Source of the DNA: Candidatus Poribacteria bacterium
GTDB lineage: Bacteria; Poribacteria; WGA-4E; WGA-3G
Length of the DNA: 64,000 nt
Assembly: GCA_963663765.2 (NCBI GenBank)
Contig: CAXXUA010000005.1
Location: 768,001 to 832,000 of the forward strand
Direction: 5' to 3'
In this document: one piece after another, positions 1,825-60,845 of the stretch
Position numbering within the stretch: the first letter of the stretch is position 1
How the letters are laid out: each line of letters begins with the position of its first letter
Translations under genes and position numbers: made by a program
Notes under the pieces: model-generated
Told to the model about the DNA's origin: nothing
Database searches by the model: none
The model's input: the letters and a program-made list of their open reading frames with translations, nothing else

Positions 1825-2191
1825 CTTTGTAAGCGCGCACCGAACGGTAGGCGTGCTTTGTAAGCGCGCCCCACAACTGCAGGCGTGCTTTGTAAGCGCG
1901 CCCCACAACTGCAGGCGTGCTTTGTAAGCGCGCCCCACAACTGCAGGCGTGCTTTGTAAGCGCGCCCCGTTGATTTGGTGCTTTGTAAGCGCACCCCCGA
2001 TGGTAGGCGGGGAATGCCTAAATGGCATTCATACCGTTGATTTGGTGCTTTGTAAGCGCGCTCCCCAACTGCAGGCGTGCTTTGTAAGCGCGCCCCCCAA
2101 CTGCAGGCGTGCTTTGTAAGCGCACCCCCCAACTGCAGGCGTGCTTTGTAAGCGCACCCCCCAACTGCAGGCGTGCTTTGTAAGCGCACCC
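1825..2191 (+). repeat. Head-to-tail array of ~32-bp REP-like units (GCAGGCGTGCTTTGTAAGCGCGCCCCACAACT)
   Basis: About 10 near-identical copies; same family at 46467-47023 and 39541. Confidence 0.95.
2009..2044 (+). mobile_element. 36-bp hairpin micro-insertion, type 1 (GGGGAATGCCTAAATGGCATTCATACCGTTGATTTG)
   Basis: Interrupts GTAGGC|GTGCTTT; the empty version is at 1847. Other copies at 2396-2431, 12779-12813, 37199-37234, 37601-37663, 39548-39583, 44401-44433, 44562-44605. Confidence 0.85.
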
Positions 2192-2500
2192 CGATGTTAT
2201 GCGTGGGTTAGATAGAATTACAAATTCATTTATTAATCTTCATTTAGTTTCTGTCCGCATCTGCACAAACTAAATGTTTGATGCTCAAAATGTCCAAATA
2301 ATTTTATGTTTTACTATAATCGGGGTTGAAAACCCCTCCCACAAGAGGTCAAAATCCTTAAATTGACGCTTATGGGTTTCGCATACGCTCTACCCGGGGA
2401 ATGCCAATAAGGCATTCATACCGTTGATTTGGACCTACGATATAAACTTTAAGTAACACCCATTAAATGATAATTCTTAAAACTGAATAACCCTGTCCGT

Positions 2501-2994
2501 GGGGTGTGTAAAGATTTTGCACAGAGGTACAAACATTTGTTCTCTTTAGTCCCGTAGGGACGCAATGTTTATAGAAAGACGTTATCACCCCTCTCTTGAG
2601 TTCCGTAGGAACGACATAAAAGGTTAAACATATCGTCCCTACGGGAATAAAAAAGACGTGAGGATATGTATTTCTATAAACATTGCGTCCCTACGGGACT
2701 GAAGCGTATGGTTGATATTAACAATATTTCCTTATATTGACACCTAATGAAGTTTGACAATCAATCGGTAGTTGAATACGTAGGGGTTGGGTTCCCCAAC
2801 CCGTTTGGTTTTTAAGTTTGCGTAGATCGGGCGTGGCAACCACGCCCCTACGAATACACAAAATACACAACTTGAACGTCAAAACTCATTAGGGCTCTGT
2901 GCCCCGCATTCTCTCATTTAATCAGTTGGGGCGGGCACAGAGTCCCGCCCTACAATGAAGAATGAGTAGTTTGTGCAAAAATTTTACACACCCC
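2501..2994. mobile_element. MITE with TIR GGGGTGTGTAAA(G/A)(A/T)TTTTGCACA carrying several REP families and a nested MITE (~2744-2892)
   Basis: Inverted ends at 2501-2523 and 2972-2994; internal GTCCCGTAGGGAC, GTAGGGGTTGGG and GCCCTAC palindromes. Confidence 0.75.
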
Positions 2995-3009
2995 ATAAAA
3001 GTATTCCAC

Positions 3010-3038
3010 TTGCTAAAATTGTGAGAGTATGTTAATAT
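3010..3038 (+). promoter_or_regulatory. Sigma70-like promoter, probably the ancestral promoter of the VOC gene
   Basis: TTGCTA-17bp-TAATAT with extended TG. Confidence 0.45.
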
Positions 3039-3053
3039 CTCTACACATTCATT

Positions 3054-4094
3054 AGACATTATAATGATTTAGTTGCAAAGTTTAGTTAACCTCTGTTATA
3101 TTAATTACAATCTTATAAATGGAGGTTATAACATGATCATTTTTGAAAATATCAAAGACAAAGCTAATACGCTTCTATCCCTCACTGGATATACTTTAGA
3201 GGAGTTTACAGCACTATTGCCTCATTTCTCTAAGAGTTTTTTAGAGTATATGGAAACACATACACTTGATGGAAAACCGCGTAAAAATCGGAAATATAAA
3301 CCCTACAAGAATAGTTGTTTTGCTTCCCTTGAAGATATGTTGCTATTTATATTAATTTACCTTCATGAAGCTCCGAAGCAAGTTCTATTCGGCACGCTCT
3401 TTGGTATGTCTCAACCTCTTACCAATAAATGGATCCACTTGCTTTTGCCGATATTGAACACCGCATTAGCAGAACTTGGAGAGGTGCCATCTCGGGAAAC
3501 AGACCCCGCATCTCTGCGTGGTGCTTGTGAGGTATCAACTCAAAGTCAAGAAGGAGAACTTTTTTTCATGATGGTGTAGAGCGACCCATACTGCGTCCAA
3601 AAGACCCGCAAACTCAAAAGGCGTATTATAGCGGTAAAAAGAAATGCCATACAGTAAAAAACAATCTGATAATCAATGAACACTGCAAAGTCGTTTTATT
3701 GACACCTTCTTTTGAAGGAAGACACCATGACAAACGGATAGCTGATATCGTAGGTTATTGTGTGCCACCGGGAAGCACATTGTATCAAGATACCGGTTTT
3801 CAAGGGTTCGACCTTCCTGATGTAAACATTGTTCAACCGAAGAAAAAACCAAAAGGTAGAGAACTTACGGATGAAGAAAAAGAAAACAATCGGAAGATAG
3901 CATCCATACGCATACGTATTGAACATGTGATTAGTGGTATCAAAAGATACCGCATCGTCAAAGATAAACTCAGAAATTGGAAGAAAGGGTTTAGTGATTC
4001 AGTAATGGAAACCTGTTGTGCCTTACACAATTTTCGACTAAATTTCAGACCCTGGCGATATGAAACTCCTGCGATTTAATTCATTATAATGTCT
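3054..4094 (+). mobile_element. IS5-family (ISL2-like) insertion sequence
   Basis: TIR AGACATTATAATGA / TCATTATAATGTCT, 3-bp TSD ATT, split transposase. Confidence 0.9.
3133..4079 (+). CDS. IS5/ISL2-type DDE transposase in two frames (-1 shift at T7 run 3560-3566)
   Basis: ORF A is HTH-like; the -1 frame reads FFHDGVERPILRPKD...YYSGKKKCHTVKN, DTGFQG, RIRIEHVISGIKRY. Confidence 0.88.
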
Positions 4095-4197
4095 ATTATT
4101 TGATTTTTGATACATCATAAACTTGAAGGTAGAGTGACAGTATCTAAATATCTACATATTTCTTGACATTCCTTGATATTTATGTGATACTATATAC

Positions 4198-12696: not shown

Positions 12697-12887
12697 TAAC
12701 AATTCAAATAAATCTTGTCTCATTAAGGAATTATAATGTTTACTGGCACGGGGTTACTCTCTTCGGTAGGAGCGACCCGGGGAATGCTATATAGCATTCA
12801 TACCGTTGATTTGCCGGTCGCGACCGGGAGGTCGCTCCTACCAGATTTCCGCTGCTAATGAGACATTATCAAACGGAAATGGTATTA
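12694..12887. mobile_element. MITE (TACCATTTC...TGTCTCATTA ends) with REP doublet and a micro-insertion
   Basis: Single-copy form of the module amplified at 24850-26478. Confidence 0.7.
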
Positions 12888-36544: not shown

Positions 36545-36784
36545 AACCATTCCGTAATCCTACACGCTATATTCAATAGCAATCAATTATGGTGAAATTT
36601 AAAAATAAGTTTACATTTCTACAATTTACCATATTGGCTGTCATCTAATACCATTTCTATTAATTATTATCGCATTATCGATTGTTAGAAATGAAACGGA
36701 ATATGGCACAAACTAACAGTTTATGCTACAAAAAAGAGACATTATTTATTAGAAATGGTATAACAATACCTTCGCCAATAATAG

Positions 36785-36960
36785 ACATTCTGCCAGATTG
36801 TGCGAGCAGTTGTAGCACATTCTGCCAGATTGTGCGGACAGTTGTAGCACATTCTGCCAGATTGTGCGGACAGTTGTAGCACATTCTGCCAGATTGTGCG
36901 GGCAGTTGTAGCACATTCTGCCAGATTGTGCGAGCAGTTGTAGCACATTCTGCCAGATTG
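36785..36960 (+). repeat. Tandem 32-bp REP-like units (ACATTCTGCCAGATTGTGCGxxCAGTTGTAGC)
   Basis: About 5.5 copies; GTAG followed by a hairpin. Confidence 0.95.
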
Positions 36961-37002
36961 CTGATATAGTCATTTCTATTGTCAAATTAGAGGCTATGAT
37001 AA

Positions 37003-37379
37003 CAAGGTTATTCAGTTTTCAATACTTTTGATAATATTTTGCTATGTCGTTAATTTTATGTGTTGCCATCTTGTCCATGTCTTTAGTCCCGTAGGGACGA
37101 TATGTTTATAGAAAAATGTTATCTATCCCTCTTGAGTTCCGTAGGAACGACATAGAAAAATAAACATATCGTCCCTACCAAATCAACGCCAAATGCGCCA
37201 AATCAACGTTATGAATGCCATTAAGGCATTCCCCGTATGGCATTTGTCGGGACTAAAGAGCGATGTTCATTTTTCAATAATCTAAAACTGATGCAGAAAG
37301 TTCGGTTAGGAAACCAAACCTGGGTATTAACTTTCAGTAAATCTCAATAACAGAAAACTCTTAAAACTAAATAACCCTG
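37003..37379. mobile_element. Nested CAGGGTTATT-type MITE
   Basis: 9-bp TSD CTATGATAA; empty site at ~54502; sister at 60507-60845. Confidence 0.9.
37179..37248 (-). mobile_element. Type-2 hairpin micro-element with a type-1 copy nested inside
   Basis: GACAAATGCCATAC[36-bp type 1]GCGCATTTGGCGTTGATTTG; plain copies at 47184, 47268, 49236, 60683. Confidence 0.85.
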
Positions 37380-37715
37380 CTATGATAAAAAAATACTTCA
37401 ACGAAAACCTGAAGTTATTTTTATTTATATAATCCTAACAATATCACAGAGCAATAGTAGATCAACACTATATACTCATTCAACTGAAGTACTCAAAAAT
37501 GGCGAAGGTATTCGTATAAGTATCCTATTCTTTTCTTTGGTAGGAGCGACCTCCTGGTCATGACTGTTTTGATACATGCTCTCCATACGGTCGCAACCAG
37601 TAAATCAACGGTATGAATGTCATTATGAAGATTATATTATTAATCTTCATAATGACATTCCCCGGGCCGCTCCTATCTGTGTGAGTGTGTAATTAATTCC
37701 ATAATTTACCATAGT

Positions 37716-38468: not shown

Positions 38469-38557
38469 GTGTTTTCTCCATCATCAAAAGGGAATTGTAA
38501 ACATAAAGAAAAACTCTTCGTATAAACATCCGTTTTATGCAGTCCTACTGGATGCTG

Positions 38558-39397
38558 CTATTTCTCGTTCCAACAACCCTCTGTATACCCATCCCGTGTA
38601 AATAGTTTCTTACGTTCTGGTGTGGTGCGTTCCATCCATTCAGTGGGAATCTCTTGTGTATAAAGATGTGGCGGACCTGCCTGCTTGAAAATGTCAATGC
38701 AGAAGATTCGGTAAGGTTGTGGTGAATCCAAAGGTTTTGCTTCTACGCCGTGAAAGATGCGTGCGTCAATATAAACCATGCTTCCCGGTGGGAGTTCAAG
38801 CCTTTTTTCTTCCAGTTTGCGTCCAACCTTATCATCAAACTCACCTGCTAAAATTCTTTCAGGTGTTACACCTTCAATTGGTTCAACTTTGTGGCTTCCA
38901 GGGATGACCTTTAGATTTCGGTCTCCGCGTTTAAACCCATTAGGATAATAAAGTATCTGGATGTAGTATTTATCACGTTCAGCGAGATTGATTGGGTTTT
39001 CATAACGCCAATGGTGATGGTCAAAATGATATTGTATTGGACCTATACCTCTTGGTGCAAGGTTTAGCGCGGAATGACAGAAATGATACGCATCACGAAT
39101 AGTTGCACTTAGTAGGTTCGTGATGAAAGGATCGTCAATAAGTCGGTCACTATACTCCTTACGTTCGTTCCAAGGACGTATGAAAAAAGCTCGTGTGTTG
39201 TCTGGATTGCGTTCCAATTCTGCAATGTAGTTTCGTGTAGGTTCAAAATGTTGCGTAATCTCTTGAATCAAACCTTCTCGTCCATCGTCCGTGAATACAT
39301 CAGGATAAGCGATATACCCATCGTTATGAAACGAATCAATATCTTCCTGTGAGGGACCTGATAAACGGAAGAGTGAATCAAGATTAGTTTTTTCCAT
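38558..39397 (-). CDS. Phytanoyl-CoA dioxygenase (PhyH) family protein
   Basis: FHNDGY, YHFD, VIPGSHK, PGS...IFHG. Confidence 0.85.
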   Translation of the reverse strand: MEKTNLDSLFRLSGPSQEDIDSFHNDGYIAYPDVFTDDGREGLIQEITQHFEPTRNYIAELERNPDNTRAFFIRPWNERKEYSDRLIDDPFITNLLSATIRDAYHFCHSALNLAPRGIGPIQYHFDHHHWRYENPINLAERDKYYIQILYYPNGFKRGDRNLKVIPGSHKVEPIEGVTPERILAGEFDDKVGRKLEEKRLELPPGSMVYIDARIFHGVEAKPLDSPQPYRIFCIDIFKQAGPPHLYTQEIPTEWMERTTPERKKLFTRDGYTEGCWNEK

Positions 39398-39446
39398 AGT
39401 GTTATCCTACCATGAGTATTGAATGTGATAGTTTCTGCTAATTTGT

Positions 39447-39475
39447 TTGACTTTTATTTTTTTTAAGAGTACAAT
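39447..39475 (+). promoter_or_regulatory. Sigma70-like promoter of the TA operon
   Basis: TTGACT-17bp-TACAAT. Confidence 0.6.
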
Positions 39476-39522
39476 TTAATTATCCATTGATAATGTGCGT
39501 TATGTTAGACTTTTGTACACAC

Positions 39523-39680
39523 TAGGACTTACGCAAAAACGGTAGGCGGTGAATGCCTAAATGGCATTCATACCGTTGATTTGGTGCTTTGTAAGCGCGC
39601 TGGAAACCCATAGAAACGCTGATAATTACATCATTTTCATCATAATATTTGATTAAAACAAGAAAACTGCGTAAGTCCTG
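39523..39680. mobile_element. MITE sharing ends with the IS701-like element
   Basis: TIR (T/C)AGGACTTACGCA, 5-bp TSD CACAC; carries a REP with a micro-insertion. Confidence 0.88.
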
Positions 39681-39708
39681 CACACAATCTGATAGTAGGA
39701 GAAGTCCA

Positions 39709-39951
39709 TTGAAAAAAATAGATCGCATTACGTTTAATCCAAATGTAATGGGTGGTAAAGCGTGTATACGTGGCATGAGAGTTACCGTTGGAACAGTTGT
39801 TGGTTTGGTTACTTCTGGTTATTCTAATGCTGACATTCTTAAAGCCTACCCTTATTTGGAAGAAGAAGATATTCATCAATCTCTATCTTATGCCGCATGG
39901 CGTGTTGAAGAAATAGAGGTACCACTGAACAACTATGAAGTTGCTGATTGA
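39709..39951 (+). CDS. DUF433 antitoxin
   Basis: RITFNPNVMGGKACIRGMRVTV...YPYLEEEDI; AGGAG RBS. Confidence 0.92.
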   Translation: MKKIDRITFNPNVMGGKACIRGMRVTVGTVVGLVTSGYSNADILKAYPYLEEEDIHQSLSYAAWRVEEIEVPLNNYEVAD

Positions 39952-40297
39952 TATGAATCTCCCACCCGATTGGGTAAATATATTTCAACAGCACGGATGG
40001 TATGCTATTCATTGGCGAGAAATTGGTGATCCACGTGCATCAGATAGTACTATCATGGCATGCGCGCGTGACAACGGTTATGTTGTCTTCAAAAGGGATC
40101 TTGACTTTGGAACGTTGCTTGCAACTACTAATGCGAAAGGTCCAAGCGTGATTCAGATTCGTGCAAAAGACGTTATTCCTCAGACTATGGGAAATTTGCT
40201 TGTTGAAGTTATTCATCAACACCATTCAACTTTAGATCAGGGTGTTTTGATTACCGTGACCGAAGATCGAGTTCGTTTACGGACTTTGCCTTTATAG
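39935..40297 (+). CDS. DUF5615 PIN-like toxin
   Basis: MKLLIDMNLPP, ASD, DLDFG. Confidence 0.9.
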   Translation: MKLLIDMNLPPDWVNIFQQHGWYAIHWREIGDPRASDSTIMACARDNGYVVFKRDLDFGTLLATTNAKGPSVIQIRAKDVIPQTMGNLLVEVIHQHHSTLDQGVLITVTEDRVRLRTLPL

Positions 40298-40314
40298 ACG
40301 AGGATACATAAGTC

Positions 40315-41787
40315 TTACATTCTGCTATGTCCTTCCGCTTCAAACTTCTCTAACAGTGTTGTCAACCGTTCCACAATTTCTGGACAACTGTCCCAGTGAT
40401 TGTCTGTTTCATAAGGATCGTCGTAAATATGATATAGTTGCCCAGGAGAGTCCGGTTTGGGACCGCCGTCACTGGGTGGAGGCCATCCACCTGATCCTTG
40501 AGTGCCTATAATCAGTTTCCACTCTTCGTGCCGTATAGAAAAGACACCGTTGCTGGAATGGTGTACGATCGCTTCACGTAAAGGATGTTCTGTTTCTTCA
40601 CCTAACAAAGCAGGTAAGATGTTGCAACTATCTTCTCCTGCGTTGTCTGGTACTTGCTTTCCAACAATCGCAGCAGATGTTTCCATCAAATCGGTTAAGC
40701 ACACCAACTCATCCGATGTTGTATTCGGTTGAATTACACCGTTCCATCTTGCAATGAAAGGTTCACGATGTCCACCTTCCCAGATATGTGCCTTATATCC
40801 ACGCCAGTCGCCACAAGATTTGTGATCGTATAGGTTATATGGCATTGGACCTTTTCCACCGCGAACTCGGTCACCAGGTAGGGCTCCGTTATCACTGGTA
40901 ACAAAGATCAATGTATCATCCGTTTTCCCCGTGCGGTCTAAAGCATCCATCACCTCACCGACCATCCAATCAACTAACCAGACGAGATCACCTCTGGGAC
41001 CCGCATCGCTTTTTCCACGTGCAAATTCTGGTACGACCTCTTCCACACACGGTTCATGCGGAGCTGAAGGTGTCATATACAGAAAGAACGGATCATCCGA
41101 ATCTGCTTGTGTTTCAATGTATTCAACAGCCTTCTGTGCGATCATTGGGTCTGCATCCTTATGTTGCCAACTTGGTGCGGTCATTCCACGTCGTCCGGTA
41201 AAGTCTGGCACCCCACGGTATTCACTTGGAATTTCAACAAAAGCGTCATTTTCAATAAAGCCATACGGGGGTTGGCATGTCGGGCAGCCTGCTGTTCCGT
41301 AGAAATAGTCAAACCCAATATCGTTTGGTCCGCCTGTTATTGGTGCGTGAAAATCAATATGTTCTTCTAACTCGCGTTTCGCATTGCCCCATGGCAGCGG
41401 TGCATCAAAATCGTAATCGTAGTCCGGCACCGTCGAAAACCCCATCCCTAAGTGCCATTTACCGACACAGGCAGTATTGTATCCCGCATCTTTCAACATA
41501 CTGGCAACTGTCAAACGTTCAGGCTCAATCAAAGCGGGTTCATACCCATATAGCACACCTCGCTTAAGACGACTCCGCCAGCAATATCTGCCTGTTAGGA
41601 CACCGTATCGGGTGGGTGTGCAAACAGCAGATGGAGAATGCGCATCAGTAAAGCGAATTCCTTCCTGTGCAAGTTGATCCATATTTGGGGTAGGAATTTT
41701 TGAATCTGGGTTATAACAACCGACATCCCCGTACCCCATGTCATCAGCCATAATGAAAATAATATTTGGTTGTTTTTGAAAATCCAT
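40315..41787 (-). CDS. Arylsulfatase family protein
   Basis: ADDMGYGD, CTPTR FGly motif, GKWHLG, SDNG. Confidence 0.96.
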   Translation of the reverse strand: MDFQKQPNIIFIMADDMGYGDVGCYNPDSKIPTPNMDQLAQEGIRFTDAHSPSAVCTPTRYGVLTGRYCWRSRLKRGVLYGYEPALIEPERLTVASMLKDAGYNTACVGKWHLGMGFSTVPDYDYDFDAPLPWGNAKRELEEHIDFHAPITGGPNDIGFDYFYGTAGCPTCQPPYGFIENDAFVEIPSEYRGVPDFTGRRGMTAPSWQHKDADPMIAQKAVEYIETQADSDDPFFLYMTPSAPHEPCVEEVVPEFARGKSDAGPRGDLVWLVDWMVGEVMDALDRTGKTDDTLIFVTSDNGALPGDRVRGGKGPMPYNLYDHKSCGDWRGYKAHIWEGGHREPFIARWNGVIQPNTTSDELVCLTDLMETSAAIVGKQVPDNAGEDSCNILPALLGEETEHPLREAIVHHSSNGVFSIRHEEWKLIIGTQGSGGWPPPSDGGPKPDSPGQLYHIYDDPYETDNHWDSCPEIVERLTTLLEKFEAEGHSRM

Positions 41788-41821
41788 ATTACTCCAATAG
41801 AGAACAGTAGGTATAACGCAT

Positions 41822-43042
41822 CTACTGTAATTTCTTCTTTAATTCCGCGAGTTCTTTGTCAATTGATGCTTCTTCAGCATACCCCGCAAACTCACGTTCT
41901 AATTTCGTATCTTGATATACGACATCTACTTCAGCTGCGGCTTTCGCCAAAGTAGCCGACTCGGACGCGTCCTGCTCTATCTTTACCAGCGTTCCAAACG
42001 CTTTAGTGTCTTGTAATTCATTGAGCATCTCACGGAGATGGTTTTCGGCATCAATGTTTCTGTGTTGTGCGACGACTGCTGTCTTTTTCCCTTCAGCTTC
42101 CATCATCTTCTGTTGAAGATGTTCAAAAAGGTCGCTGAGTGCTTGAACAACCTCTTTCTGTTCATCCCATTGTGCATTGTATTGATTGGCAAGTTGGCGG
42201 TATTCGTTGCGCTGGGTAAGGTCTTCCCGTGCCAAATCTTCACGTCCAGCTTTGATTGCAATAGTTGCCCGTTCTTCACACCGTTTGGCTTGAGCGAGAG
42301 CACCTTCATAAGCGTCCTGAAATTGTTTTTCAACGCCGATGGAAGCGTCAACCTTCTCGCGTGCTTCTGAAAGTCTATTTGTCATCTCAGCGATGGTGTT
42401 CTCTAAAACCATTTCCGGGTCTTTGGTCTCAGTCTCAATCTGTTCCAATTCTGGCTCATATTTCACAACAACTGTCTCTGCTAACTTATCCCCCATCCGC
42501 TGCCGTCTTTTTCCGAATGTCCAGAAGAAATCCAACGGCTGCAAGATTGATGTGAGTCGGCGAATGAATGAGTCCTTGAGAGTGGCAGGTTTGCCATCTT
42601 TCAATCGAAGTACTTGTAATGATAGCAACTTTTTACCAATCCCTTGTCCATTTTTGAAACCGTCCATGAAAAATAGACCGGCTGCCCACAAGGCAATCCC
42701 TCTCCAAGTTAGGACCTGGAAATCGTCACCTATCCACAATCCAAAAAGAAAAACTATAAACAGTTGTGCGGCAACCAGTACTATTATTGGATGTTTGGTT
42801 TTCGGTCCGAATATCCACAGTAATGCGCTGAACAATCCAATCAGAATAGTAGAAAAACCCACTGCTATCAAGAGAAAGAACGCAATCAATAGGATACTCG
42901 CGAGGAACATTCCATCTATGAAAAACGCAGACAACCGCGCCCTTCGGGAGCCTAATGTAAATTCTTTGCCTGCAATTTTAATAGTCTTCACTTTCAACCC
43001 TATAAATTCTTTTGTGTTTGTGCTATAGATGTTCTGATGCAC
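41822..43042 (-). CDS. RDD-PspA/IM30 fusion protein
   Basis: RLSAFFID..GKKLLSL..QRMGDKLAETVVV, then DPEMVLE...GREDLARE...IDKELAELKKKL. Confidence 0.85.
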   Translation of the reverse strand: MHQNIYSTNTKEFIGLKVKTIKIAGKEFTLGSRRARLSAFFIDGMFLASILLIAFFLLIAVGFSTILIGLFSALLWIFGPKTKHPIIVLVAAQLFIVFLFGLWIGDDFQVLTWRGIALWAAGLFFMDGFKNGQGIGKKLLSLQVLRLKDGKPATLKDSFIRRLTSILQPLDFFWTFGKRRQRMGDKLAETVVVKYEPELEQIETETKDPEMVLENTIAEMTNRLSEAREKVDASIGVEKQFQDAYEGALAQAKRCEERATIAIKAGREDLAREDLTQRNEYRQLANQYNAQWDEQKEVVQALSDLFEHLQQKMMEAEGKKTAVVAQHRNIDAENHLREMLNELQDTKAFGTLVKIEQDASESATLAKAAAEVDVVYQDTKLEREFAGYAEEASIDKELAELKKKLQ

Positions 43043-43091
43043 ATTTATTTCTGTAGTTTACCTTTAATTCTGCTAACAGCGTATCTCATAT

Positions 43092-44210
43092 CTATTGTAG
43101 TTTTGCTTTTAGTTCTGTGAGTTCTCTGTCAATTGATTCGTCATCTGCATACTTCTCAAATTCGCGTTGTAAGTTTATGTCCTTGAATTCAATATCTACT
43201 TCGGATGCAGCCTTTGCTAAGGCAGCAGCCTCAGTTACGTTTTGCCCCATTTTCTTGAGTATTTCAAAAGCTTTATTATCACGGAGTTCTGTCAATGTTT
43301 GTTGTAGATGTTCTTGGGCATCCACATTTCTGTGTTTGGCTATTACAACGTCCCTTTCTCTCTGTGTTTGCTGTGTTTTTTGTTGTAAGGCATCAAGTAA
43401 CGTTGTGAGATGTTCTACAGTCTGTTTCTGTTCCTCCCACTGCTGTTTGTATTGGGTTGCAAGTTGTTGGTATTCATTTCGTTGTGCGAGGTCTTCCCGT
43501 GCCAAGTCTTCTCGTTCAGCTTTCAGTGCAATGAGTGCGCGTTCTTCACATTTTTTGGCTTGTGCAACAGCACCATCGTGAGCATTTTGAAACTGTTTTT
43601 CTATCCCAATAGAAGCATCTACCTTTTGCTTCGCTTCTGAAAACCGATTTGTGATTTCCAGGATAACATCTTCTAATACCTTTTCAAGGTCCTTTTCTTC
43701 GTTTTCTGCTTCACGTTCAACTTCTATATCAGACACAATTTCTACAATTGGTGAATCTAATTGTACTACAACCGTTTTCGCGAGCTTATCTCCCATTCGT
43801 TGCCTTACTTTTCCAGATAGAAATAACCAGTCAATAGGTTGAAATATACCTGAAAAACGTCGCACGAAAGCGTCCCATAAGTTTGCTGGTTTTCCATCTT
43901 TCAATCGGACAATTTGTAGAGATAAGAGCCTTTTTCCAAACCCACCCCCTTTTATGACACCGTCCATACAAAATATGCCAAAGAACCACAAGACAACAGA
44001 TAATAGAATCATAGATCTTAATGTTAGTTGATTTGCATCATAGATGTCCAGAAAGAAAAATTTTTCAAGAACCCAAATTTCCAAGTATCCTCCAAGAAAC
44101 ACAATACATTGGAGGAAAACACAGAGAACTATGTCCAGCAAAAACGCGCAGAACCGCTTCCATCGAGATGCTAATTTAAACTTTTCCCCTATGATCTTTA
44201 CAAAAGACAT
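43092..44210 (-). CDS. RDD-PspA/IM30 fusion protein (paralog)
   Basis: RFCAFLLD..GKRLLSL..QRMGDKLAKTVVV, then PspA helices ending IDRELTELKAKL. Confidence 0.85.
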   Translation of the reverse strand: MSFVKIIGEKFKLASRWKRFCAFLLDIVLCVFLQCIVFLGGYLEIWVLEKFFFLDIYDANQLTLRSMILLSVVLWFFGIFCMDGVIKGGGFGKRLLSLQIVRLKDGKPANLWDAFVRRFSGIFQPIDWLFLSGKVRQRMGDKLAKTVVVQLDSPIVEIVSDIEVEREAENEEKDLEKVLEDVILEITNRFSEAKQKVDASIGIEKQFQNAHDGAVAQAKKCEERALIALKAEREDLAREDLAQRNEYQQLATQYKQQWEEQKQTVEHLTTLLDALQQKTQQTQRERDVVIAKHRNVDAQEHLQQTLTELRDNKAFEILKKMGQNVTEAAALAKAASEVDIEFKDINLQREFEKYADDESIDRELTELKAKLQ

Positions 44211-44436
44211 TCTTACAATTCCTCTATAGCGTATCTCATAAATGCAATTTTGTCCAAATTCATCAAATCACGCGTCTGGTAAATCGGGGTTTCTAACCTC
44301 GATTGTTTGAGCCAAAACCTGCAAATCGGGGTTAGAAACACCTCCAACAACTCTAATAGTAAACGTTTCAACAATAGGTCACATCACTAAATTGACACCC
44401 GGGGAATGCTATAGAGAATTCAGACCTTTGATTAAT

Positions 44437-45100
44437 GGGTAAAACTATGCAAAATCCATAGGCGTCAATTTAAGCGACAAATCCCGCCACACATTGTAGG
44501 GCGGGGTCTCTGTGCCCCGCCATGTATTCAAAAAGGAAACAATGGGCGGGCACAGAGACCCGGGGAATGCCTAAATGGCATTCATACCGTTGATTTCTTG
44601 ATTTGGTCCCTACAATCAAGATGACAACGTTGGTTGTGCTAAACTGAACAATACCTTGAAATAAATCCCTAAATTGACGCCTATGGGTATAACTATGCAA
44701 AACCTATAGGTGTCAACTTAAGGATATTAACCTCTTGTGGGAGGGGTTTTCAACCCCGACAGAAGCCAAACGCGCTTCTGACGTTGATTTGGATTTATTA
44801 GGGCATTTCCGCTCAAATCGGGGTTAAAAACCCCTCCCACAAGAGAAAATGCAAACAATATTTTCTTAAGTTGACACCTATAGGGTATAACTATGCAAAA
44901 CCCATAGGTGTCAACTTAAGGATATTAACCTCTTGTGGGAGGGGTTTTCAACCCCGTCAGAAGCCAAACGCGCTTCTGACGTTGATTTGGATTTATTAGG
45001 GCATTTCCGCTCAAATCGGGGTTAAAAACCCCTCCCACAAGAGAAAATGCAAACAATATTTTCTTAAGTTGACACCTATGGGTATAACTATGCAAAACCC
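44437..45100. mobile_element. Three ATAGG(T/C)GTCAA-TIR MITEs separated by four 21-bp direct repeats
   Basis: Repeats at 44437, 44685, 44883, 45080; inserts 44458-44684, 44706-44881, 44904-45079. Confidence 0.85.
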
Positions 45101-45192
45101 AACCTACGAAAAGTCTTTCCTACATCAAACTATTACACATATCTCTTAATAATAGAGCCAGTAAGAATGAAAAAGATAGCCAAATTACGTGG

Positions 45193-46257
45193 TTACAATG
45201 TGGGGACTGTTACCTCCACTTCACGTCCATCAGATTCAGAGGAATCAATGACTCCCTGAATGATGACGTTAGTTAGCAGGACACCGTAAGGATCAATCGG
45301 TGAGGGTTTGCCTTCTCTAACAGCATCAATAAACGCACTATCTTCCTCGTGAAACACATTTACCGACTTAAATTCCGTGTATGTTTCATCATGGATCTCA
45401 CCGTTCTTGTCACCATAGACACGTACACCATTCTGAGGACCGCGCACTTCACCGACTCCGACGCGTAAACCTGCTTTCTTACCGAGAAAAATAGTACCAC
45501 CAAGGGAATCCATATTCATACACCAACATGTCTTGAAAACCATGCGTGCACCGTTGTCAAATACCACCCAACCGACACCGAAATCTTCTACCTCTGTTTC
45601 TCTGAGTGCGGGATTCCAATTGTTGTGTAGACTTAAGTAGTTTGAGGTAATGCCTGAGACAGCAACAGGTTTGGGGTGTTCCATCAGATAGAGTGCAGTA
45701 TCCAATGCGTAGACACCGATGTCTGCGGACGCGCCTAAACCGGCTGTCGCTTTACGTATGAAACTGCCACCAGGATTGCCGCGACGTCTGTCTGCTACAG
45801 TCTCAACGTAATAGATGTCACCCAGTGTACCAGCGTCTACAATCTCTTTCGCCTTGATGACTTGGGAGGAATAGCGAAGTTTTAATCCAATCATGAGTAT
45901 TTTGTCGTTTTCCACGGATGCACGCCACATTGCAGCTGCTGCGTCCAACGTTGCTTCCATGGGTTTTTCGCAGAAGACGTGTTTGCCCGCGTTGAGTGCA
46001 GCAACGGTTGGAGCAGAATGTACACCTGTCGGGGTGCATACGTAGACCGCTTCAATCTCATCCATTTTGAGCATTTCGTTATAATCGGTGAATGTATTTT
46101 TGATTCCCCATCTTTCTTTTGCGCGTTCTAAGTTACCCGATACCAAGTCTGCAGCTGCGATAATTTCCGCGCCTTCTATGTTAGCAAGCGTTCCGCAATG
46201 TGACTGTGCAATGCCACCTGCCCCAATTAAACCTAATTTGACTGTTCTCATAGCCAT
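45193..46257 (-). CDS. Gfo/Idh/MocA family oxidoreductase
   Basis: IGAGGIA, CTPTGVH, GKHVFCEKP. Confidence 0.95.
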   Translation of the reverse strand: MAMRTVKLGLIGAGGIAQSHCGTLANIEGAEIIAAADLVSGNLERAKERWGIKNTFTDYNEMLKMDEIEAVYVCTPTGVHSAPTVAALNAGKHVFCEKPMEATLDAAAAMWRASVENDKILMIGLKLRYSSQVIKAKEIVDAGTLGDIYYVETVADRRRGNPGGSFIRKATAGLGASADIGVYALDTALYLMEHPKPVAVSGITSNYLSLHNNWNPALRETEVEDFGVGWVVFDNGARMVFKTCWCMNMDSLGGTIFLGKKAGLRVGVGEVRGPQNGVRVYGDKNGEIHDETYTEFKSVNVFHEEDSAFIDAVREGKPSPIDPYGVLLTNVIIQGVIDSSESDGREVEVTVPTL

Positions 46258-46396
46258 CTCCTCGTTACAGATATATTTTATTGATTTTATCCTTTTTCAT
46301 TTTCATAGTCAAGTTAATTTATGGTGCGGGGTGTGTAATGTTTTGGCACAAACTGCTCATTCTCCATGGTAGGGCGGGGTCTCTGTGCCCCGCCGC

Positions 46397-47071
46397 ATAG
46401 GTGTCAACTTAGCGATTCATATTATTGTTGGAGGAAAATCTTGAAATCACGATTTTCTCACTCAAGGTAGACGTGCTTTGTAAGCGCACCCCCCCAACTG
46501 CACTCCCTCGCACTCACCCGCACTCACCTGCAGGCGTGCTTTGTAAGCGCACCAAGCACTCACCCGCACTCACCCACACTCCCCTGCAGGCGTGCTTTGT
46601 AAGCGCACCCCGAACTCACCCGCACTCAACCGCAGGCGTGCTTTGTAAGCGCACCCCTCAACTGCAGGCGTGCTTTGTAAGCGCACCCAACACTCACCCG
46701 CACTCAACTGCAGACGTGCTTTGTAAGCGCACCCCTCAACTGCAGGCGTGCTTTGTAAGCGCACCCAACACTCACCCGCACTCAACTGCAGACGTGCTTT
46801 GTAAGCGCACTCCTCAACTGCAGGCGTGCTTTGTAAGCGCGCCTGCACTCACCCGCACCCCCCAACTGCAGGCGTGCTTTGTAAGCGCACCTACCAACTG
46901 CACTCCCCTGCAGGCGTGCTTTGTAAGCGCGCCAAGCACTCACCCGCACTCCCCTGCAGGCGTGCTTTGTAAGCGCACCGTTGCCAATCCTGTGTTTATC
47001 GGCGCACTTACAAAGCACACCTACCGGGATGGGGTATTTAGCACTTGACTTTTTCTTAAGTTGACACCTAA
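46397..47071. mobile_element. ATAGGTGTCAACTT-TIR MITE containing a REP tandem array
   Basis: 21-bp imperfect TSD at 46376-46396 and 47072-47092; GCAGGCGTGCTTTGTAAGCGC repeats 46467-47023. Confidence 0.8.
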
Positions 47072-47175
47072 GGGGTCTCTGTGTCCCGTCACAACTGATT
47101 AAATAAGAGATTACGGGAACAGCACCCATAGGTGTTGTCAACATAAGGAAATATTGTTAATATCAACCATACTCT

Positions 47176-47400
47176 TCAGTCCCGACAAATGCCATACGCG
47201 CATTTGGCGTTGATTTGGTAGCGACGATATGTTTATAGAAAACGAGTTCACACGCCTTTTTAGTCCCGACAAATGCCATACGCGCATTTGGCGTTGATTT
47301 GGTAGGGACGATATGTTTATTCTTCTATGCCGTTCCTACGGAACTCAAGAGGGGTAGATAACATTTTTCTATAAACATATCGTCCCTACGGGACTAAATG
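47176..47400. repeat. Cluster of AGTCCCGTAGGGAC REPs, two carrying type-2 micro-insertions
   Basis: Insertions at 47184-47217 and 47268-47301; empty copy at 47382-47397. Confidence 0.85.
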
Positions 47401-47714
47401 GTTTTCTTGCTAAGTATTTGTTATATGTTCCCATTGACGATCTTCTACTTAAACAGATGACGACTGGGTTCTTCAGCATTGAAATTTTATTTTATGCTAA
47501 AATTAATTGCCGAAAGAACCACTAAAGACATGGACAAGATGGCAACGCATAAAATTAACGGCATAGCAAAAAATCATCAAAAATGCCTAAAACTAAATAA
47601 TCCTACCATTTCCAATAATTTGTTGATATTGAAGTTAAAGTCTGCTAAAATACTTGTGGATAGGTATTAAACCACTACATCTTACACCTGAAATAGAACT
47701 GGAGAAAAAGCAGC

Positions 47715-48323
47715 ATGACAGCAAACGCAATAACACTTTATAGACTTTTTATGACTCTTATTGTTATCATCATTTTCGGACAACATCTATACATCAATAT
47801 AGCGTGTGTTGTAACAATTGTCCTAATTTATATACTTGATGCGGTGGATGGTATCGTTGCTCGTAGGCAGGATAAGGCAACAACATTCGGTGCTGTCTTT
47901 GATATTGCAGCGGATAGAGTGATTGAAAACGTATTCTGGATATACTTTGCTGCTAACAGTTCTATTCACGTCTGGATGCCGATTGCCGTGGTGACGCGTG
48001 GGTTTCTCACAGATGGTGTCCGTGGCCTTGCACTTACAGATGGAAAAACACCTTTTGAGATGATGGCTATACCTTGGACGCGCGCATTGACAAGTTCTCG
48101 TATCTCTCGCTTTTTCTCCGGTTTTTCTAAAGCACTCGCCTTCACTTGCCTCTCAGCTATTCCTGTCGTTGAAGAGATTTTTTCCCATAACGACACTGTT
48201 ATAAGTGCCTTTAAGACTGCATCTGTTGTAATAGCAATTTTTGCTGTTGGTATCTGTTTGATCCGCGGTTTCCCTGTGCTTATTGATGGGTGGAAGTATA
48301 TTAAAGAAAGTAGTCAAAAATGA
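47715..48323 (+). CDS. CDP-alcohol phosphatidyltransferase
   Basis: DAVDGIVARR....TFGAVFDIAADR signature. Confidence 0.93.
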   Translation: MTANAITLYRLFMTLIVIIIFGQHLYINIACVVTIVLIYILDAVDGIVARRQDKATTFGAVFDIAADRVIENVFWIYFAANSSIHVWMPIAVVTRGFLTDGVRGLALTDGKTPFEMMAIPWTRALTSSRISRFFSGFSKALAFTCLSAIPVVEEIFSHNDTVISAFKTASVVIAIFAVGICLIRGFPVLIDGWKYIKESSQK

Positions 48324-49084
48324 AAAAAAGGCTTTTTACAACTGGTGAATTGATATTCGGTGGCATTGCCTGCCTATTAATCCTATTGATTGGGGCGGGT
48401 GCCTGCTATTATTGGTATAAACATAGTATTGCTCCTTACGAAAAAGAAGCAGCCCAAACAGCCAAACCTGTCAGCGAATGGGAAAAATCACAGAAAGTGA
48501 ATACCAACAACGTGACGGAAGAAGTAAATACCACACCTGCGGAAAAACATAACGCAACAACAGAGAAACCTATAACCGAAACAATAGATGTTTCCGATAA
48601 TGTATTGCAAAACGCTAACACAAAAAATGTTGAAGCTGAGAACTATGTTGAAGCAGGGACTTCACCAACAGAAACTGTAGAAGATGTACCCGTCTCTCCG
48701 CACGGATTTGGTCCCTATCCGAAAATACCAAAGGGTGCGCCAATTGCAAAATTTGACGACAGTGACGATATAGACATGGAATTATTGATTCGTGTTGCTG
48801 TCAAGGCTTGGAACGAAGGTGAAAGATTCGAAAGTGCTTTCACTGATGGGAATACAGGTAGGGTCTACCTAAATTATCCTGGAATAGTTTATGTCGAATA
48901 TTCAGAAAAGAGAGATACCGCAACTGGTGAAGTAAAATTAGTTGTTAGTAATGTTACTGGACCTGCTTCATTAAGTCAGAGTGTTATCAGTTCAGTTTTC
49001 GATGGTAACACACCTGCAGGATACACAACTATAGATATTAAAGAATCTGGGATAGACCCTTATGAGTATTTAGAATTACCTTAA
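48320..49084 (+). CDS. Lineage-specific membrane-anchored protein (SPHGFGPYP...GIDPYEYL family)
   Basis: Paralog of 18017-18772. Confidence 0.8.
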   Translation: MKKRLFTTGELIFGGIACLLILLIGAGACYYWYKHSIAPYEKEAAQTAKPVSEWEKSQKVNTNNVTEEVNTTPAEKHNATTEKPITETIDVSDNVLQNANTKNVEAENYVEAGTSPTETVEDVPVSPHGFGPYPKIPKGAPIAKFDDSDDIDMELLIRVAVKAWNEGERFESAFTDGNTGRVYLNYPGIVYVEYSEKRDTATGEVKLVVSNVTGPASLSQSVISSVFDGNTPAGYTTIDIKESGIDPYEYLELP

Positions 49085-49329
49085 TTTAACGAGTTGTGCT
49101 AAATAACTATACGTTAATCATTGTTTCACATAAGCATGGCGTTTTGCAGGTGTCCTTCATAGTTTGAAACTATCTTTAGTCCCGTAGGGACGATATGTTT
49201 ATAGAAAAACGTCATAGTACATCCTCTTTAGTCCCGACAAATGCCATACGCGCATTTGGCGTTGATTTGGTAGGGACGATATGTGTGCATTATAAACCTA
49301 ATATATGTAAAAACTTTGAAAACAATGGG

Positions 49330-50601
49330 TTAACTGGCACAAGTCGTTAATTTACCTTCTGACGTATCAACAAGTGAATTTAGAATGGGCAGCAACGAAT
49401 TCATTGTTGGCACATCGCGGAAGGTAAAGCCGAATTGTGAGAAATAGTCTGACTCCGACAACGCATCCGCGATAATCTGTTGCTTCTCCAACTCCTTTGA
49501 TACACCGAGAATAAGGGGTGTGTCGGTATGTTCCGCAAGTGTATTGAGACGGGCAAGTAGATGTCCTTGGTGCCACGGATGGAACAGCTCAATTGCGATT
49601 TTCACACCACTGCTATGGATCAGTTGATAATCTGGGAAGCAGTAGAAATCACCGGGTAAAGGTAGAAACTGACTTCCAGGGTGTATCTGCCATGTATCGG
49701 TTTTGTTGCGGAGCATCTCTTGAAAGAGATGAATGTCTTCAGGAATGTAGGCGAGGAATTGTTGCGATATGGGTTTGATACCGCACGAATCATCAAGAAT
49801 CAACCGACAACTCTGTTTATTGCGAAACTGAATTTCCGCGGTGAGTTCCCATTTCGGTTGATGTAGTATAGCGACAAAAAAATTGGCTAAGTTCATGCCA
49901 TATCGTTTGGTTTTGTAAAAGAGGTTTAGCGGTCCGTCTACAGTAATGTGGAATAGATCCTCGTTTGTGGTTTTCTCCTTCCGAATAGTGGAGAGGAGTT
50001 GGTTAAATCTAAGATACTTGAACAACTGCCGGAGTTCTGCTGTCATGGATTCAGTGAGAACTAATGTGAGTGTGTTGCAATGTAGGAGCAATCCTTGCAC
50101 CTGCGCAGTGTTGTAGCGGTGGAGTAGATGTTCGGCAGATATTCTTCTGAAAGACAGCACGGGTTGGCAATTCGGCAGATCCGCATAGAGTTTATCACCC
50201 AACCCGTTCCCCTCTAATACCCCTTCGTTTCCAACAATCTGCGAAACTTTCTGCTGATAGTCGGCATAATCCTGAAACCTTTCTTGTGAAAGCATGCGGC
50301 TTGTTTCTGTAAACAGTTTATGCCGAAATGCAATAAGTTCTTCATTAGGAGCAGTGTCAAACTCAGTGCGGTCTAATAGCAGTTTTTCAAAGCCACGTTT
50401 GATGATAAGTTGCCCTGATGTCGTATCAATGACATGTTTACTCGCTTCTAATATCGTTGCCCTCGGCTTGTCCTGTGATTCTTCAAACACGGATATTAGC
50501 TGGTCAGCAATTGCCAGTAATTTGCTGTCTGTAGGATCAACAAATTGGGGAAAAATCTTCCCTTTTTGAATTCTGTAGCGGAGTAGGTCTTTGGTAAGCA
50601 T
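49330..50601 (-). CDS. DUF790 (Bax1-like) endonuclease
   Basis: MLTKDLLR, LYADL, RYNTAQVQGLL, DGPLNLF..TKRYG, FPDY...IELF. Confidence 0.88.
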   Translation of the reverse strand: MLTKDLLRYRIQKGKIFPQFVDPTDSKLLAIADQLISVFEESQDKPRATILEASKHVIDTTSGQLIIKRGFEKLLLDRTEFDTAPNEELIAFRHKLFTETSRMLSQERFQDYADYQQKVSQIVGNEGVLEGNGLGDKLYADLPNCQPVLSFRRISAEHLLHRYNTAQVQGLLLHCNTLTLVLTESMTAELRQLFKYLRFNQLLSTIRKEKTTNEDLFHITVDGPLNLFYKTKRYGMNLANFFVAILHQPKWELTAEIQFRNKQSCRLILDDSCGIKPISQQFLAYIPEDIHLFQEMLRNKTDTWQIHPGSQFLPLPGDFYCFPDYQLIHSSGVKIAIELFHPWHQGHLLARLNTLAEHTDTPLILGVSKELEKQQIIADALSESDYFSQFGFTFRDVPTMNSLLPILNSLVDTSEGKLTTCAS

Positions 50602-56498: not shown

Positions 56499-56520
56499 GT
56501 TTGAGTAATTGCTCTAGACT

Positions 56521-59500: not shown

Positions 59501-59796
59501 ATAGATTTATCGGTGTTTGCATATATGATTAAGTTCTCGTAAGAAGTTTTTGCGACCTGTTTTTGTATCTTGCGGCGGGTGGCATAATCTGGAATGTTTT
59601 CCTGAGATATAGGTTGTGGACATTCGTAGACTGCCATACCGCGTTTCTGTGCAATTGCGGTAAGTATGTATTCGGTTTCATCTACTACTATTGGCAGGGT
59701 TTGCGTATGATTCTCCCAACCGAGAGTTTGCGTAAAGAGATCTTCAAATTCGGATTCCCTAAGGTATTGGCGTGTTTCGTTGAGGTTAATTTGCAT
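56521..59796 (-). CDS. Eco57I/type IIG-like N6-adenine DNA methyltransferase with C-terminal TRD
   Basis: YLNGGIF, GAYYT, DPTCGSGAF, YGVDI, IGNPPY. Confidence 0.92.
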   Translation of the reverse strand: MQINLNETRQYLRESEFEDLFTQTLGWENHTQTLPIVVDETEYILTAIAQKRGMAVYECPQPISQENIPDYATRRKIQKQVAKTSYENLIIYANTDKSIQIWQWVKKEQGKPDACREHRYENWQSGESLIQKLQNIVIPLEEEEGLTLFDVTGRVHASFDVEKVTKKFYDRFKKEHDAFLEFLSGIPDEEMQKWYVSVMLNRLMFIYFIQKKGFLNSDINYLQTKLRETQEKGTDLYYKEFLCPLFFEGFAKPEDERTPEMSRLLGKIPYLNGGIFQKHQLETLHGENIEIPDTAFEQIFNFFEQYDWHLDDRPLRNDNEINPDVLGYIFEKYINQKQMGAYYTKEDITEYISKNTIIPFLFDKAREKCKIAFDGNTFVWKLLQENPDKYIYDAVKKGTDLDLPEDIAIGIDKVSERTKWNERAPDGVDEIALPTEIWREVVARRQRYETVRSKLANGEIKNINDLITYNLNIRQFAQDVIENCEGPELLRAFWKAITKVTVLDPTCGSGAFLFAALNILEPLYEACLNRMQVFVDELKLSDEKPHPKKYSDFHEVLKKINQHPNHKYFVLKSIIIHNLYGVDIMDEAIEICKLRLFLKMVAQIDNVKDIEPLPDIDFNIQAGNTLVGFATYEEVEKAVTERLDSHFDDTMQRIEDKAKDIKKLYDEFRDQQTTHGGVVTPEDKQNLQGRLMELEDELNEYLAFVYAIDKNDQSKYQEWKKSHNPFHWFIAFYGILQDGGFDVIIGNPPYRSINKINYSPVNYNTIECRDLFALCCERSSFLNNKSGSFSMIIPLNGYSTEKMCSLRTLLLKSYSENHLSYFSASDQPASLFTGVRYRLMIFVNRRSCSKVISTTRFLKWFNSEREFLFNAILQSHSIEDLVYLPANSKLSSSLEESVLKKVFEKPTLGKWRHKRGIEDSAIYYHNAPVHWGKVLDFIPFYQVGNERPKKSSHIKSLYFDKDISKVVLCFLNSNLFYWWNWHFTNCRDLTFTDIDRSRVDLSGFSHESIETFRQLSDSLMTDLRKNSKIYKRVVRGVLTQFDSFYPALSKHIIDDIDRELAQHYCFTEEELDFIINYDFKYRMGLKYFTSG

Positions 59797-59825
59797 AGGT
59801 TTAAAATGGGATTAGGGCAGTATAG

Positions 59826-60107
59826 TTAATAAATATCACCACGATTGTCAATTTGTATAATACGGATTGTTCTATTCTCTCTATCGACTCGGTAAATGAA
59901 ACGAATGTCCCCTATCCGATAGCGATAACTTTCTCTCTTTGCTCCACGTAATCGTTTAATTATCGTTGAATTTTCGTGTTGAAATGGGGATCTGACGATG
60001 TATTCAAAAGCACCATTAATTCGTTCCTGCGTCACCCGGTCTCGTTTTCTGATAAAATTCACGACTTTTCCTGGAAGGGATTCAAGTCTATATGACTGTT
60101 GATTCAC
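59826..60107 (-). CDS. RelE/ParE family toxin
   Basis: IKRLRG...YRYRIGDIRFIY...RGDIY. Confidence 0.88.
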   Translation of the reverse strand: MNQQSYRLESLPGKVVNFIRKRDRVTQERINGAFEYIVRSPFQHENSTIIKRLRGAKRESYRYRIGDIRFIYRVDRENRTIRIIQIDNRGDIY

Positions 60108-60433
60108 AGACCGATCTCCTCCTTAATCTGTGCCCATGGTATTCCACCGCCAGCATCCAATTCCTGTTCTGCCTGTGCCATATCAGCCAAGACGTTCGGT
60201 TCTGAGTTGATTAAAGCGGTTTCACGCCATTCGGAGAGAAAAATAGAGAGTGTATCTGCGTTTTTTTTGCCTTCCGAGATTTGTGTTAGCATCTTAAATA
60301 ATTCAGCAAAAAATTCAACAAGTTCTTCTGAATCTAACCATTTTATCCAATCAAAGGTTTTTAATAGTGTAACAGATTTGACAGATAATTCATCGTTTAT
60401 GAGGTGTCCAACGACAAGTTTTGATTTTTTCAT
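60104..60433 (-). CDS. Putative antitoxin
   Basis: GTGA overlap with the toxin; EWRETA, IPWAQIKEEIGL. Confidence 0.75.
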   Translation of the reverse strand: MKKSKLVVGHLINDELSVKSVTLLKTFDWIKWLDSEELVEFFAELFKMLTQISEGKKNADTLSIFLSEWRETALINSEPNVLADMAQAEQELDAGGGIPWAQIKEEIGL

Positions 60434-60506
60434 CTGATACCTCCAAAGATAAAGTTATGTTAATATCTATTATACAGGTTTTTGCTTTGAGATTCAACAC
60501 TTGTAT

Positions 60507-60845
60507 TAGGGTTATTCAGTTTTAGGTATTTTTGATAAGTATTTACTATAACGTTAATATTATATGTTGCCATCTTGTCCAGTTCTTTAGTCCCGTAGGG
60601 ACGATATGTTTATAGATAAATGTTATCTACCCCTCTTGAGTTCCGTAGGAACGGCATAGAAGAATAAACATATCGTCCCTACCAAATCAACGCCAAATGC
60701 GCGTGTGGCATTTGGCAGGACTAAAGACCGATGTTCATGTTTCAATTTTCTAAAATTGATGTGTAAGGTGCAGTTAGGACCTCATTTGGGTATTAACTTT
60801 CAGTAAATCTCAATAACAGAAAACTTTTAAAACTGAATAACCCTG
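60507..60845. mobile_element. CAGGGTTATT-type MITE with REPs and a type-2 micro-insertion (60683-60716)
   Basis: TIRs; TSD (c/t)ACTTGTAT. Confidence 0.85.

Follow-up and report, generated by a model that had tools for sequence, protein, structure and literature searches.

Hairpin-and-tail micro-elements of 34-36 nt lodged in the palindromic repeats of Poribacteria

The window analyzed here, a stretch of 64,000 nt from a Candidatus Poribacteria genome (positions 768,001 to 832,000 of contig CAXXUA010000005.1, assembly GCA_963663765.2; C5:768001-832000 in our numbering of a 6.35-Mb genome in 15 contigs), contains copies of a very small repeat that consists of a hairpin followed by a 9-nt tail and that sits inside other palindromic repeats, mostly hairpins of the repetitive extragenic palindromic (REP) type. 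The family is real, abundant and defined by its structure. An earlier reading of the window, made from its letters alone and called the sequence-only reading below, had proposed a minimal non-autonomous element residing in structured repeats, and this proposal is borne out by precise boundaries in at least 12 contexts, nesting of unlike copies, stems that co-vary and variable cargo between like ends. With modest confidence, we favor a non-autonomous micro-element that is mobile now or was so recently, moved by a putative activity supplied in trans; it would rank among the smallest mobile DNAs known. The candidate enzyme is probably not a Y1 transposase or REP-associated tyrosine transposase (RAYT).

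Copies, fold and range of the family

A unit is written here as a head (h; 27 nt in type 1, for example 2009-2035 of the window, against 25 nt in the other two types), next a junction base, then a 7-nt tail core (t) and a final base (x); the standard type-1 unit is h-G-t-G (2009-2044). The window has 15 exact matches to the 9-nt tail, where 100 shuffles give a mean of 1.26 and at most 5, and 12 of these 15 tails close a hairpin unit (2036, 2423, 12805, 37179c, 37199c, 39575, 44783, 44981, 47209, 47293, 49261 and 60683c, where c marks the minus strand). The tails at 44027 and 63206 lack an upstream hairpin and appear fortuitous, and three more copies end in a variant tail (37601c, 44562 and 44401). 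Because the exact-tail units and the three variants account for them, all 15 copies of the sequence-only reading are present where it had placed them and in the three types that it distinguished (eight of type 1, five of type 2 and two of type 3). The copy it had called degenerate, at 44401, is indeed a degenerate type 1, and the flank exceptions at 12779 (C on the right) and 60683 (T on the left) are likewise seen. The features of the window are the following.

1969..1977, plus strand: headless tail within a tandem REP-like array
2009..2044, plus strand: type-1 unit (27-nt head, G, 7-nt tail core, G); host the main REP-like repeat, 5' arm
2396..2431, plus strand: type-1 unit in another palindromic host
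12779..12813, plus strand: type-1 unit whose stem is a compensated variant, lying within a third REP-like hairpin's loop and followed by C
37179..37248, minus strand: type-2 unit, its loop interrupted by a type-1 insert
37199..37234, minus strand: type-1 unit nested within the loop of the type-2 unit at 37179-37248c
37601..37663, minus strand: 63-nt long-stem form with type-1 ends and a 20-bp stem; last base of the tail A
39548..39583, plus strand: type-1 unit with one head substitution, in the main REP-like host
44401..44435, plus strand: degenerate type-1 unit
44562..44605, plus strand: type-1 unit in which two tails (tail-C-tail-G) follow one head; host a GC-rich hairpin, 3' arm
44758..44791, plus strand: type-3 unit at the 3' foot of a hairpin resembling a MITE (a miniature transposable element with inverted repeats)
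44956..44989, plus strand: type-3 variant whose 9-bp stem is paired throughout
47184..47217, plus strand: type-2 unit in a small REP-like hairpin, where stem and loop meet
47268..47301, plus strand: type-2 unit in the same host family as that at 47184, 84 nt downstream of it
49236..49269, plus strand: type-2 unit
60683..60716, minus strand: type-2 unit, stem variant; left flank T

The tandem array that spans 1900-2200 has a repeat of ~32 nt, made up of the main REP-like hairpin and a C-rich spacer; one of its repeats holds a type-1 copy and one the tail only.

Folded as single-stranded DNA, the units form a stem, 7 bp long in type 1 and 9 bp in the other two types, and the tail after it stays free; in types 2 and 3 the C that precedes the unit pairs with the junction G. 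Units are 34-36 nt long, heads alone 25-27 nt, and the unpaired conserved part is the 9-nt tail, lying 0-5 nt past the stem. A four-letter tag beside the stem is absent as such; type 1 alone has something near to it, on the other strand and one letter off. The type-1 stem exists in three compensated versions, with 290, 19 and 16 copies. Covariation was scored over 20 distinct type-2/3-like variants from four genomes plus two loci, chosen for their difference and not for their pairing. In this alignment 92.8% of cells are paired, and the covariation score is 0.290 against 0.104 for shuffled alignments, none of 500 shuffles reaching 0.290; shifting the partner strand drops pairing to 21-53%. Both sides have changed at five of the nine stem pairs, while the tail and junction G are the same in all 20 variants, so that the compensatory stems with a near-constant tail first noticed in the window are upheld.

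The ends of the unit are unequal, with 3 nt outside the stem on one side and 14 nt on the other. The earlier description of an element with neither target-site duplication nor terminal inverted repeats is correct in its first half, as no duplication is found at any host class; the second half needs amendment, the stem being itself an inverted repeat of 7-9 bp.

Genome-wide there are 550 exact tails: 260 belong to type 1, 136 to type 2 and 16 to type 3, and the other 138 are headless, close to the ~125 expected by chance. The genome search for hairpin plus tail, with tabulated flanks, that the sequence-only reading had proposed yields some 624 units when looser patterns are used (465 of type 1, 142 of type 2 and 17 of type 3). 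Beyond this genome, the type-1 20-mer (at most one mismatch) is found in all 39 other genomes of the same genus, in 57 of the 65 from a second genus, and in none of 7 genomes from four further genera of the family. Across the phylum, the exact type-1 18-mer is found in 71 of 176 genomes; the two positive genera comprise 105 genomes, and of the other 71 Poribacteria searched one has the 18-mer, in a single copy. Among the genomes searched, the type-1 family is thus effectively limited to two genera. Species of one genus carry anywhere from 2 to 468 type-1 copies, the present genome being the richest, and conservation falls off at the unit ends. Type-2-like units occur in all three genomes of the first genus that were searched for them and in neither of two of the second. 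In one relative (G024), which has no Y1 match, type-2-like units with differing stem variants stand head to tail at a 34-nt period (C1:4402056-4402123 and 4431339-4431406).

The same ends also recur around other contents. In longer relatives they form the base of long palindromes, and identical ends enclose cargo of 4 nt to ~700 nt: a 60-nt form (38 copies) has an inner type-2-like hairpin in either orientation, forms of 188-191 nt enclose an inverted pair of the main host, and others measure 63 nt (in the window), 86-98 nt and 357-749 nt. Double-tailed palindromes number 8, while single units run to hundreds. We found neither a gene that the element's ends enclose nor one that recurs between pairs of units. 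A master element was considered and set aside, the sole long cargo with a transposase being an ordinary insertion sequence in a type-1 loop. That insertion sequence (G000 contig C15, minus strand, ~258146) is 1762 nt long and has inverted repeats of its own, a short target duplication and an open reading frame (ORF) of 492 aa; the type-1 loop that it occupies lies in turn within a type-2 loop. Neither do the units appear to be the end of a known insertion sequence, given that headless tails are near chance (138 of 550) and that plasmid and phage collections hold no match to the units.

Such uniformity could also mean that the units are functional sites, bound by protein or acting as structured RNA, which selection maintains and for which spread is secondary. 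The invariant tail and the stems compensated over two genera would suit this alternative, as would the intergenic placement (27 of 624 units lie inside ORFs of at least 150 aa, though such ORFs make up 76.5% of the genome); against this must be set a copy number that varies from 2 to 468 within one genus, the piling up of units in tandem and in nests, the lack of any Rfam family at threshold in the window and an orientation that is unlinked to flanking co-directional genes (115 units the same way, 128 opposite). We judge such a role improbable. A terminator role in particular was rejected because orientation is independent of the neighboring genes.

Host repeats, empty copies and nesting

In the present genome the 376 type-1 heads fall into at least eight host contexts, with the following distribution.

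Main REP-like host: 146 of 376 type-1 heads
Within another type 1: 75 of 376
Other palindromes: 67 of 376
Loop of type 2: 60 of 376
Tandem arrays: 28 of 376

Host repeats are also found without a unit, and genome-wide the empty and filled copies are as follows.

Main REP-like host: 348 empty, 159 filled
Type-2 host: 598 empty, 121 filled
Type-3 host: 206 empty, 13 filled
Type-2 loop as host: 129 empty, 59 filled

Empty hosts had been reported from the window itself. Six empty type-2 hosts are found there; for type 3, one empty host can be pointed to (~2316-2335, minus strand), with a variant right flank, and a longer pattern finds none. Filled copies of the main host are spread over at least seven flank classes, in each of which empties dominate, and empties of the type-2 host occur in 20 of the 37 left contexts that have filled copies, these 20 accounting for 109 of 126 filled copies. 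Type-1 loop variants are mixed within every context. Taken over both genera, boundaries are precise in at least 12 unrelated host contexts.

The insertion point had been described as C^G, which is half of the picture. The preceding C is near-invariant, standing before 333 of 376 type-1 heads, before 261 of 303 outermost type-1 chains and, in the second genus, whose host palindromes are other ones, before all 19 copies listed; beyond this C the context varies. The base after the unit, like x, differs by host and lineage (x is G in 257 of 303 chains of the present genome and T, G, C or A among the 19 of the second genus), so the site is not strictly C^G; because the last base varies in this way, the constant part comes to 35 nt plus the preceding C. 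In the 5' arm of the main host, copies with T five bases before the site are 52 filled and 348 empty, and those with C there 5 filled and 561 empty (odds ratio 16.8, p 6e-16). The opposite unit orientation was seen once.

Units also lie within one another and in tandem. Chains, given as (heads, tails), have these counts.

(1,1): 178
(1,2): 63
(1,3): 17
(2,2): 25
(2,3): 6
(2,1): 1

A second head evidently brings a second tail, since there are 25 chains of (2,2) and 6 of (2,3) against a single (2,1); adjacent heads may later collapse, leaving surplus tails. The nested product of type 1 is always h-C-h-G-t-C-t-x. Head-C-head is found 118 times, head-G-head never and one head directly on another once; likewise, tail-C-tail is found 238 times and tail-G-tail never. 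From the form of this product, the outer junction G has been swapped for C on both sides of the insert, and the same C-insert-C junction is seen in the second genus and in other species. Plain tandem arrays read t-G-h (36 times), head to tail and without spacers. No insert is found at the type-2 junction. The two heads are unlike in 21 of the 40 nested pairs, which indicates that another copy entered. No scheme that we worked through accounts for the junction footprint: a single cut-and-paste, a one-base duplication, a circular permutation and an integron-type crossover were each tried, and none fits all host classes.

Movement, passive spread and the search for an enzyme

If units of this kind move, an enzyme supplied in trans would recognize the hairpin and tail on single-stranded DNA and cut just 5' of the hairpin and again 8-9 nt 3' of it; the excised piece would then be joined in after a C, at sites at which other repeats are able to form a fold. 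After founding insertions, many copies also multiplied passively along with their hosts.

Several observations weigh against mobility of this kind. None of the 303 type-1 chains has unique DNA on both sides, and for 261 of them both 60-nt flanks match the genome at least 20 times. In the 3' arm of the main host one outer-head loop is common to 26 of 28 copies, ~13 copies of one REP class have another single loop, and every type-3 copy lies within one MITE family. Along 190 kb of synteny with the nearest species (~82-92% identity), all 12 tail-bearing gaps are whole-block differences. Six public runs contain the stretch, and the contigs of four of them over window 36001-50000 stop at each repeat block and bridge none. 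Identical heads occupy 19 of 40 nested pairs where 9.0 +/- 2.5 would be expected, an excess which implies that self or local copying is favored too and which fits conversion as well as transposition. Simple cut-and-paste at C^G would not produce the swap of G for C on both sides of a nested insert. Between the ends of the element no candidate enzyme gene was found, and three of five copy-rich genomes checked have no Y1. Orientation is weakly related to the sign of GC skew (at 200 kb, odds ratio 0.47 and p 4e-4; at 400 kb, not significant), and relative to that skew empty hosts are biased in the same direction as units. Finally, in a complete relative 38 plus and 42 minus copies are interleaved with no visible strand switch.

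A good part of this would be accommodated by passive spread, in which one or a few ancient insertions per host class were multiplied by mobile REP and MITE hosts and by gene conversion, the units themselves not being mobile today. Hitch-hiking and conversion do contribute, but we consider them the less likely main route. It is consistent with the lack of chains in unique DNA, the clonal classes in which a single loop prevails, the excess of identical nested heads and the confinement of differences from the nearest species to whole blocks. It would also fit the 3' arm of the main host, where a preferred hexamer is 23 times filled and once empty and the usual hexamer twice filled and 287 times empty, as flank co-conversion or a single origin might produce; the preferred hexamer is nearly always filled because that class is clonal.

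A comparison of filled and empty alleles across relatives had been proposed together with the first description of the units, and it returned whole-block differences only. In window 36000-50000, intergenic regions differ by whole blocks from those of the two nearest species at ~90% identity (1168 bp here against 49 and 38 bp in one example), and no clean indel of 35-36 nt at an orthologous site was found in the two nearest species, in the 190 kb or in 80 loci of relatives. For want of such a pair, hitch-hiking with gene conversion stays a live rival. It is faced, nevertheless, with at least 12 unrelated contexts in two genera, which still require that many precise insertions. Several loop variants occur in each major context, flank sub-families are common to filled and empty copies, and more than half of the nested pairs scored (21 of 40) join unlike heads. 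Moreover, an 18-20-nt type-1 core is identical over two genera, while the flanking DNA is ~90% identical in the nearest species and ~75-80% in the rest of the genus.

Given a unit that moves, the sequence-only reading had looked to an HUH enzyme of the Y1 class. Elements of the IS200/IS605 group make no target duplication, have no long terminal inverted repeats, carry a hairpin near the end, are cut ~10 nt 3' of it and use a fixed short target. Movement of the units as single-stranded DNA by such an enzyme (RAYT or IS200/IS605 TnpA) would be in keeping with the hairpin, a cut site 8-10 nt 3', the conserved 5' base and the absence of target duplication, as well as with the REP-type hairpins that most hosts are and with the weak link of orientation to GC-skew sign in the present genome. 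The enzymes are available, since the six Y1_Tnp matches of this genome comprise four IS200/IS605 copies, one intact RAYT and one broken RAYT. Even so, we find a Y1 mover doubtful. No unit lies within 900 nt of the six matches (a bare tail motif stands at the truncated sixth), and none flanks the 14 Y1 loci of five relatives; the longer copy enclosing or flanking a Y1 or RAYT gene that one might hope for was accordingly not found in these genomes.

The distribution of Y1 genes points the same way. Within the genus, the RAYT clade is present in 29 of 40 genomes and missing from 11, among them genomes with 186, 171, 136 and 120 type-1 copies, and genomes with 4-10 type-1 copies retain a RAYT that is 88-94% identical. 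At E up to 0.01, Y1_Tnp has no match in three of five copy-rich genomes (G024, G010 and G001) and has matches in the other two (G014 and G045); one of the Y1-less copy-rich genomes is a single-contig chromosome of 92% estimated completeness. The lack of a visible strand switch in the complete relative argues against a Y1 mover as well. In contrast to IS200/IS605, one hairpin of the unit serves both ends and the target is little more than a C, and the left ends of the four resident IS200/IS605 copies are unrelated to the micro-elements.

The Y1 loci themselves merit description. The intact RAYT of the present genome is flanked by its own REPs, and the broken one stands behind an array of the main host. 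The latter is a RAYT-like gene at a contig end (G000 C10:24997-25277) with stop codons after about residue 64; as it lies directly behind that array, the main host's own transposase looks broken. The four IS200/IS605-type copies (G000 C5:688634, C3:287718, C5:550867 and C5:353059) are near-identical, and a tnpB-like frame follows three of them. In a complete relative with ~300 type-1 copies, a RAYT (L110, G017:C1:313905-317231) is the sole Y1 gene and is bracketed by its own, different REP doublet.

Two other systems of hairpin-shaped sites come to mind, and the units might be minimal attC-like sites of integrons or stray CRISPR repeats. The tail, at whose first letters nesting takes place, departs by one letter from what we take to be the integron core-site consensus, and the eight double-tailed palindromes resemble small attC sites; similarly, a hairpin with a handle of 8-9 nt presumably recalls CRISPR repeats in size and shape. 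However, 5 genomes yielded no integron integrase scoring over the 265-bit cut-off, their weak hits being like those in all 14 control genomes, and the nested product differs from the outcome of a crossover at that point. The tandem arrays are free of spacers and thus lack the regular unique spacers between CRISPR repeats. An origin in either system seems to us highly improbable.

Relation to known small repeats

The small dispersed repeats (SDRs) of Elhai et al. 2008 (Genome Res 18:1484) are reportedly 21-27 nt long and confined to a subgroup of heterocystous cyanobacteria. SDR1-8 of the Nostocaceae are reportedly described as very small, presumed mobile repeats in several families with a compensated common fold, and as self-nested, lodged within other repeats and mini-transposons and precise in their insertion points (PMC5861425, PMC4390886, PMC13756078), all of which is like the Poribacteria family. 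The comparison is by description, not by sequence. Poribacteria units differ in length (34-36 nt), in phylum and in having an invariant common tail. That the units are Elhai's SDRs was considered and rejected: the host belongs to Poribacteria and the cyanobacterial octamer palindrome is rare in the present genome (29 copies), and for these reasons SDRs are an analogue and not the same family.

Tagged REP sequences and their REPIN arrangements resemble the units in being short intergenic hairpins that number in the hundreds and carry at one of their ends an unpaired tag (PMC3733652, PMC3116915). The first of these papers also reports some REP families inside small palindromic targets that occur empty as well, and one tagged REP super-family without a dedicated transposase (PMC3733652). 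Relative to tagged REPs as so described, the Poribacteria tag is a 9-nt 3' tail common to unrelated stems in place of a 4-nt tag, and the units lodge inside other REPs and at their own head-tail junction. Unlike the REPIN-RAYT system, they have no association with a RAYT, and unlike a classical MITE of the DDE kind, they lack a target-site duplication and have unequal ends. The element-specific sequences were not found in the papers searched, the only string encountered there being 10 nt of the tail, in unrelated papers, and among the matches listed none links Poribacteria with REP-type repeats. The impression that this is no described class thus stands for the sequences; tagged REP palindromes and SDRs are close to it in kind.

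How repeats with no room for any coding sequence, shorter even than ordinary MITEs, come to spread has been a question since the SDRs of 2008, and the Poribacteria family adds another instance, from an uncultured phylum of sponge symbionts that is unrelated to the first. A more far-reaching proposal, which we put forward tentatively, is that DNA of less than 40 nt is here moved by an enzyme class not yet tied to transposition, or by replication or repair machinery, without a Y1 transposase or integron integrase and with the element's own head-tail junction as its favorite target, and that the family and the cyanobacterial SDRs would be independent examples of a single, so far unrecognized mode of DNA movement. 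Tests should be eased by the invariant tail, the compensated stems, the near-invariant C and the strict footprint of nesting, and also by copy numbers of 2-468 among sister species and by complete relatives that have no Y1 transposases.

There is a practical side to these repeats. In the present genome, repeat blocks inflate the intergenic DNA: the intervals at window 36549-37717, 39385-40314, 43076-45193 and 46327-47617 are 0.9-2.1 kb here against 11-145 bp in the two nearest species. Units and hosts together swell intergenic DNA in this way and break short-read assemblies of sponge symbionts at each repeat block.

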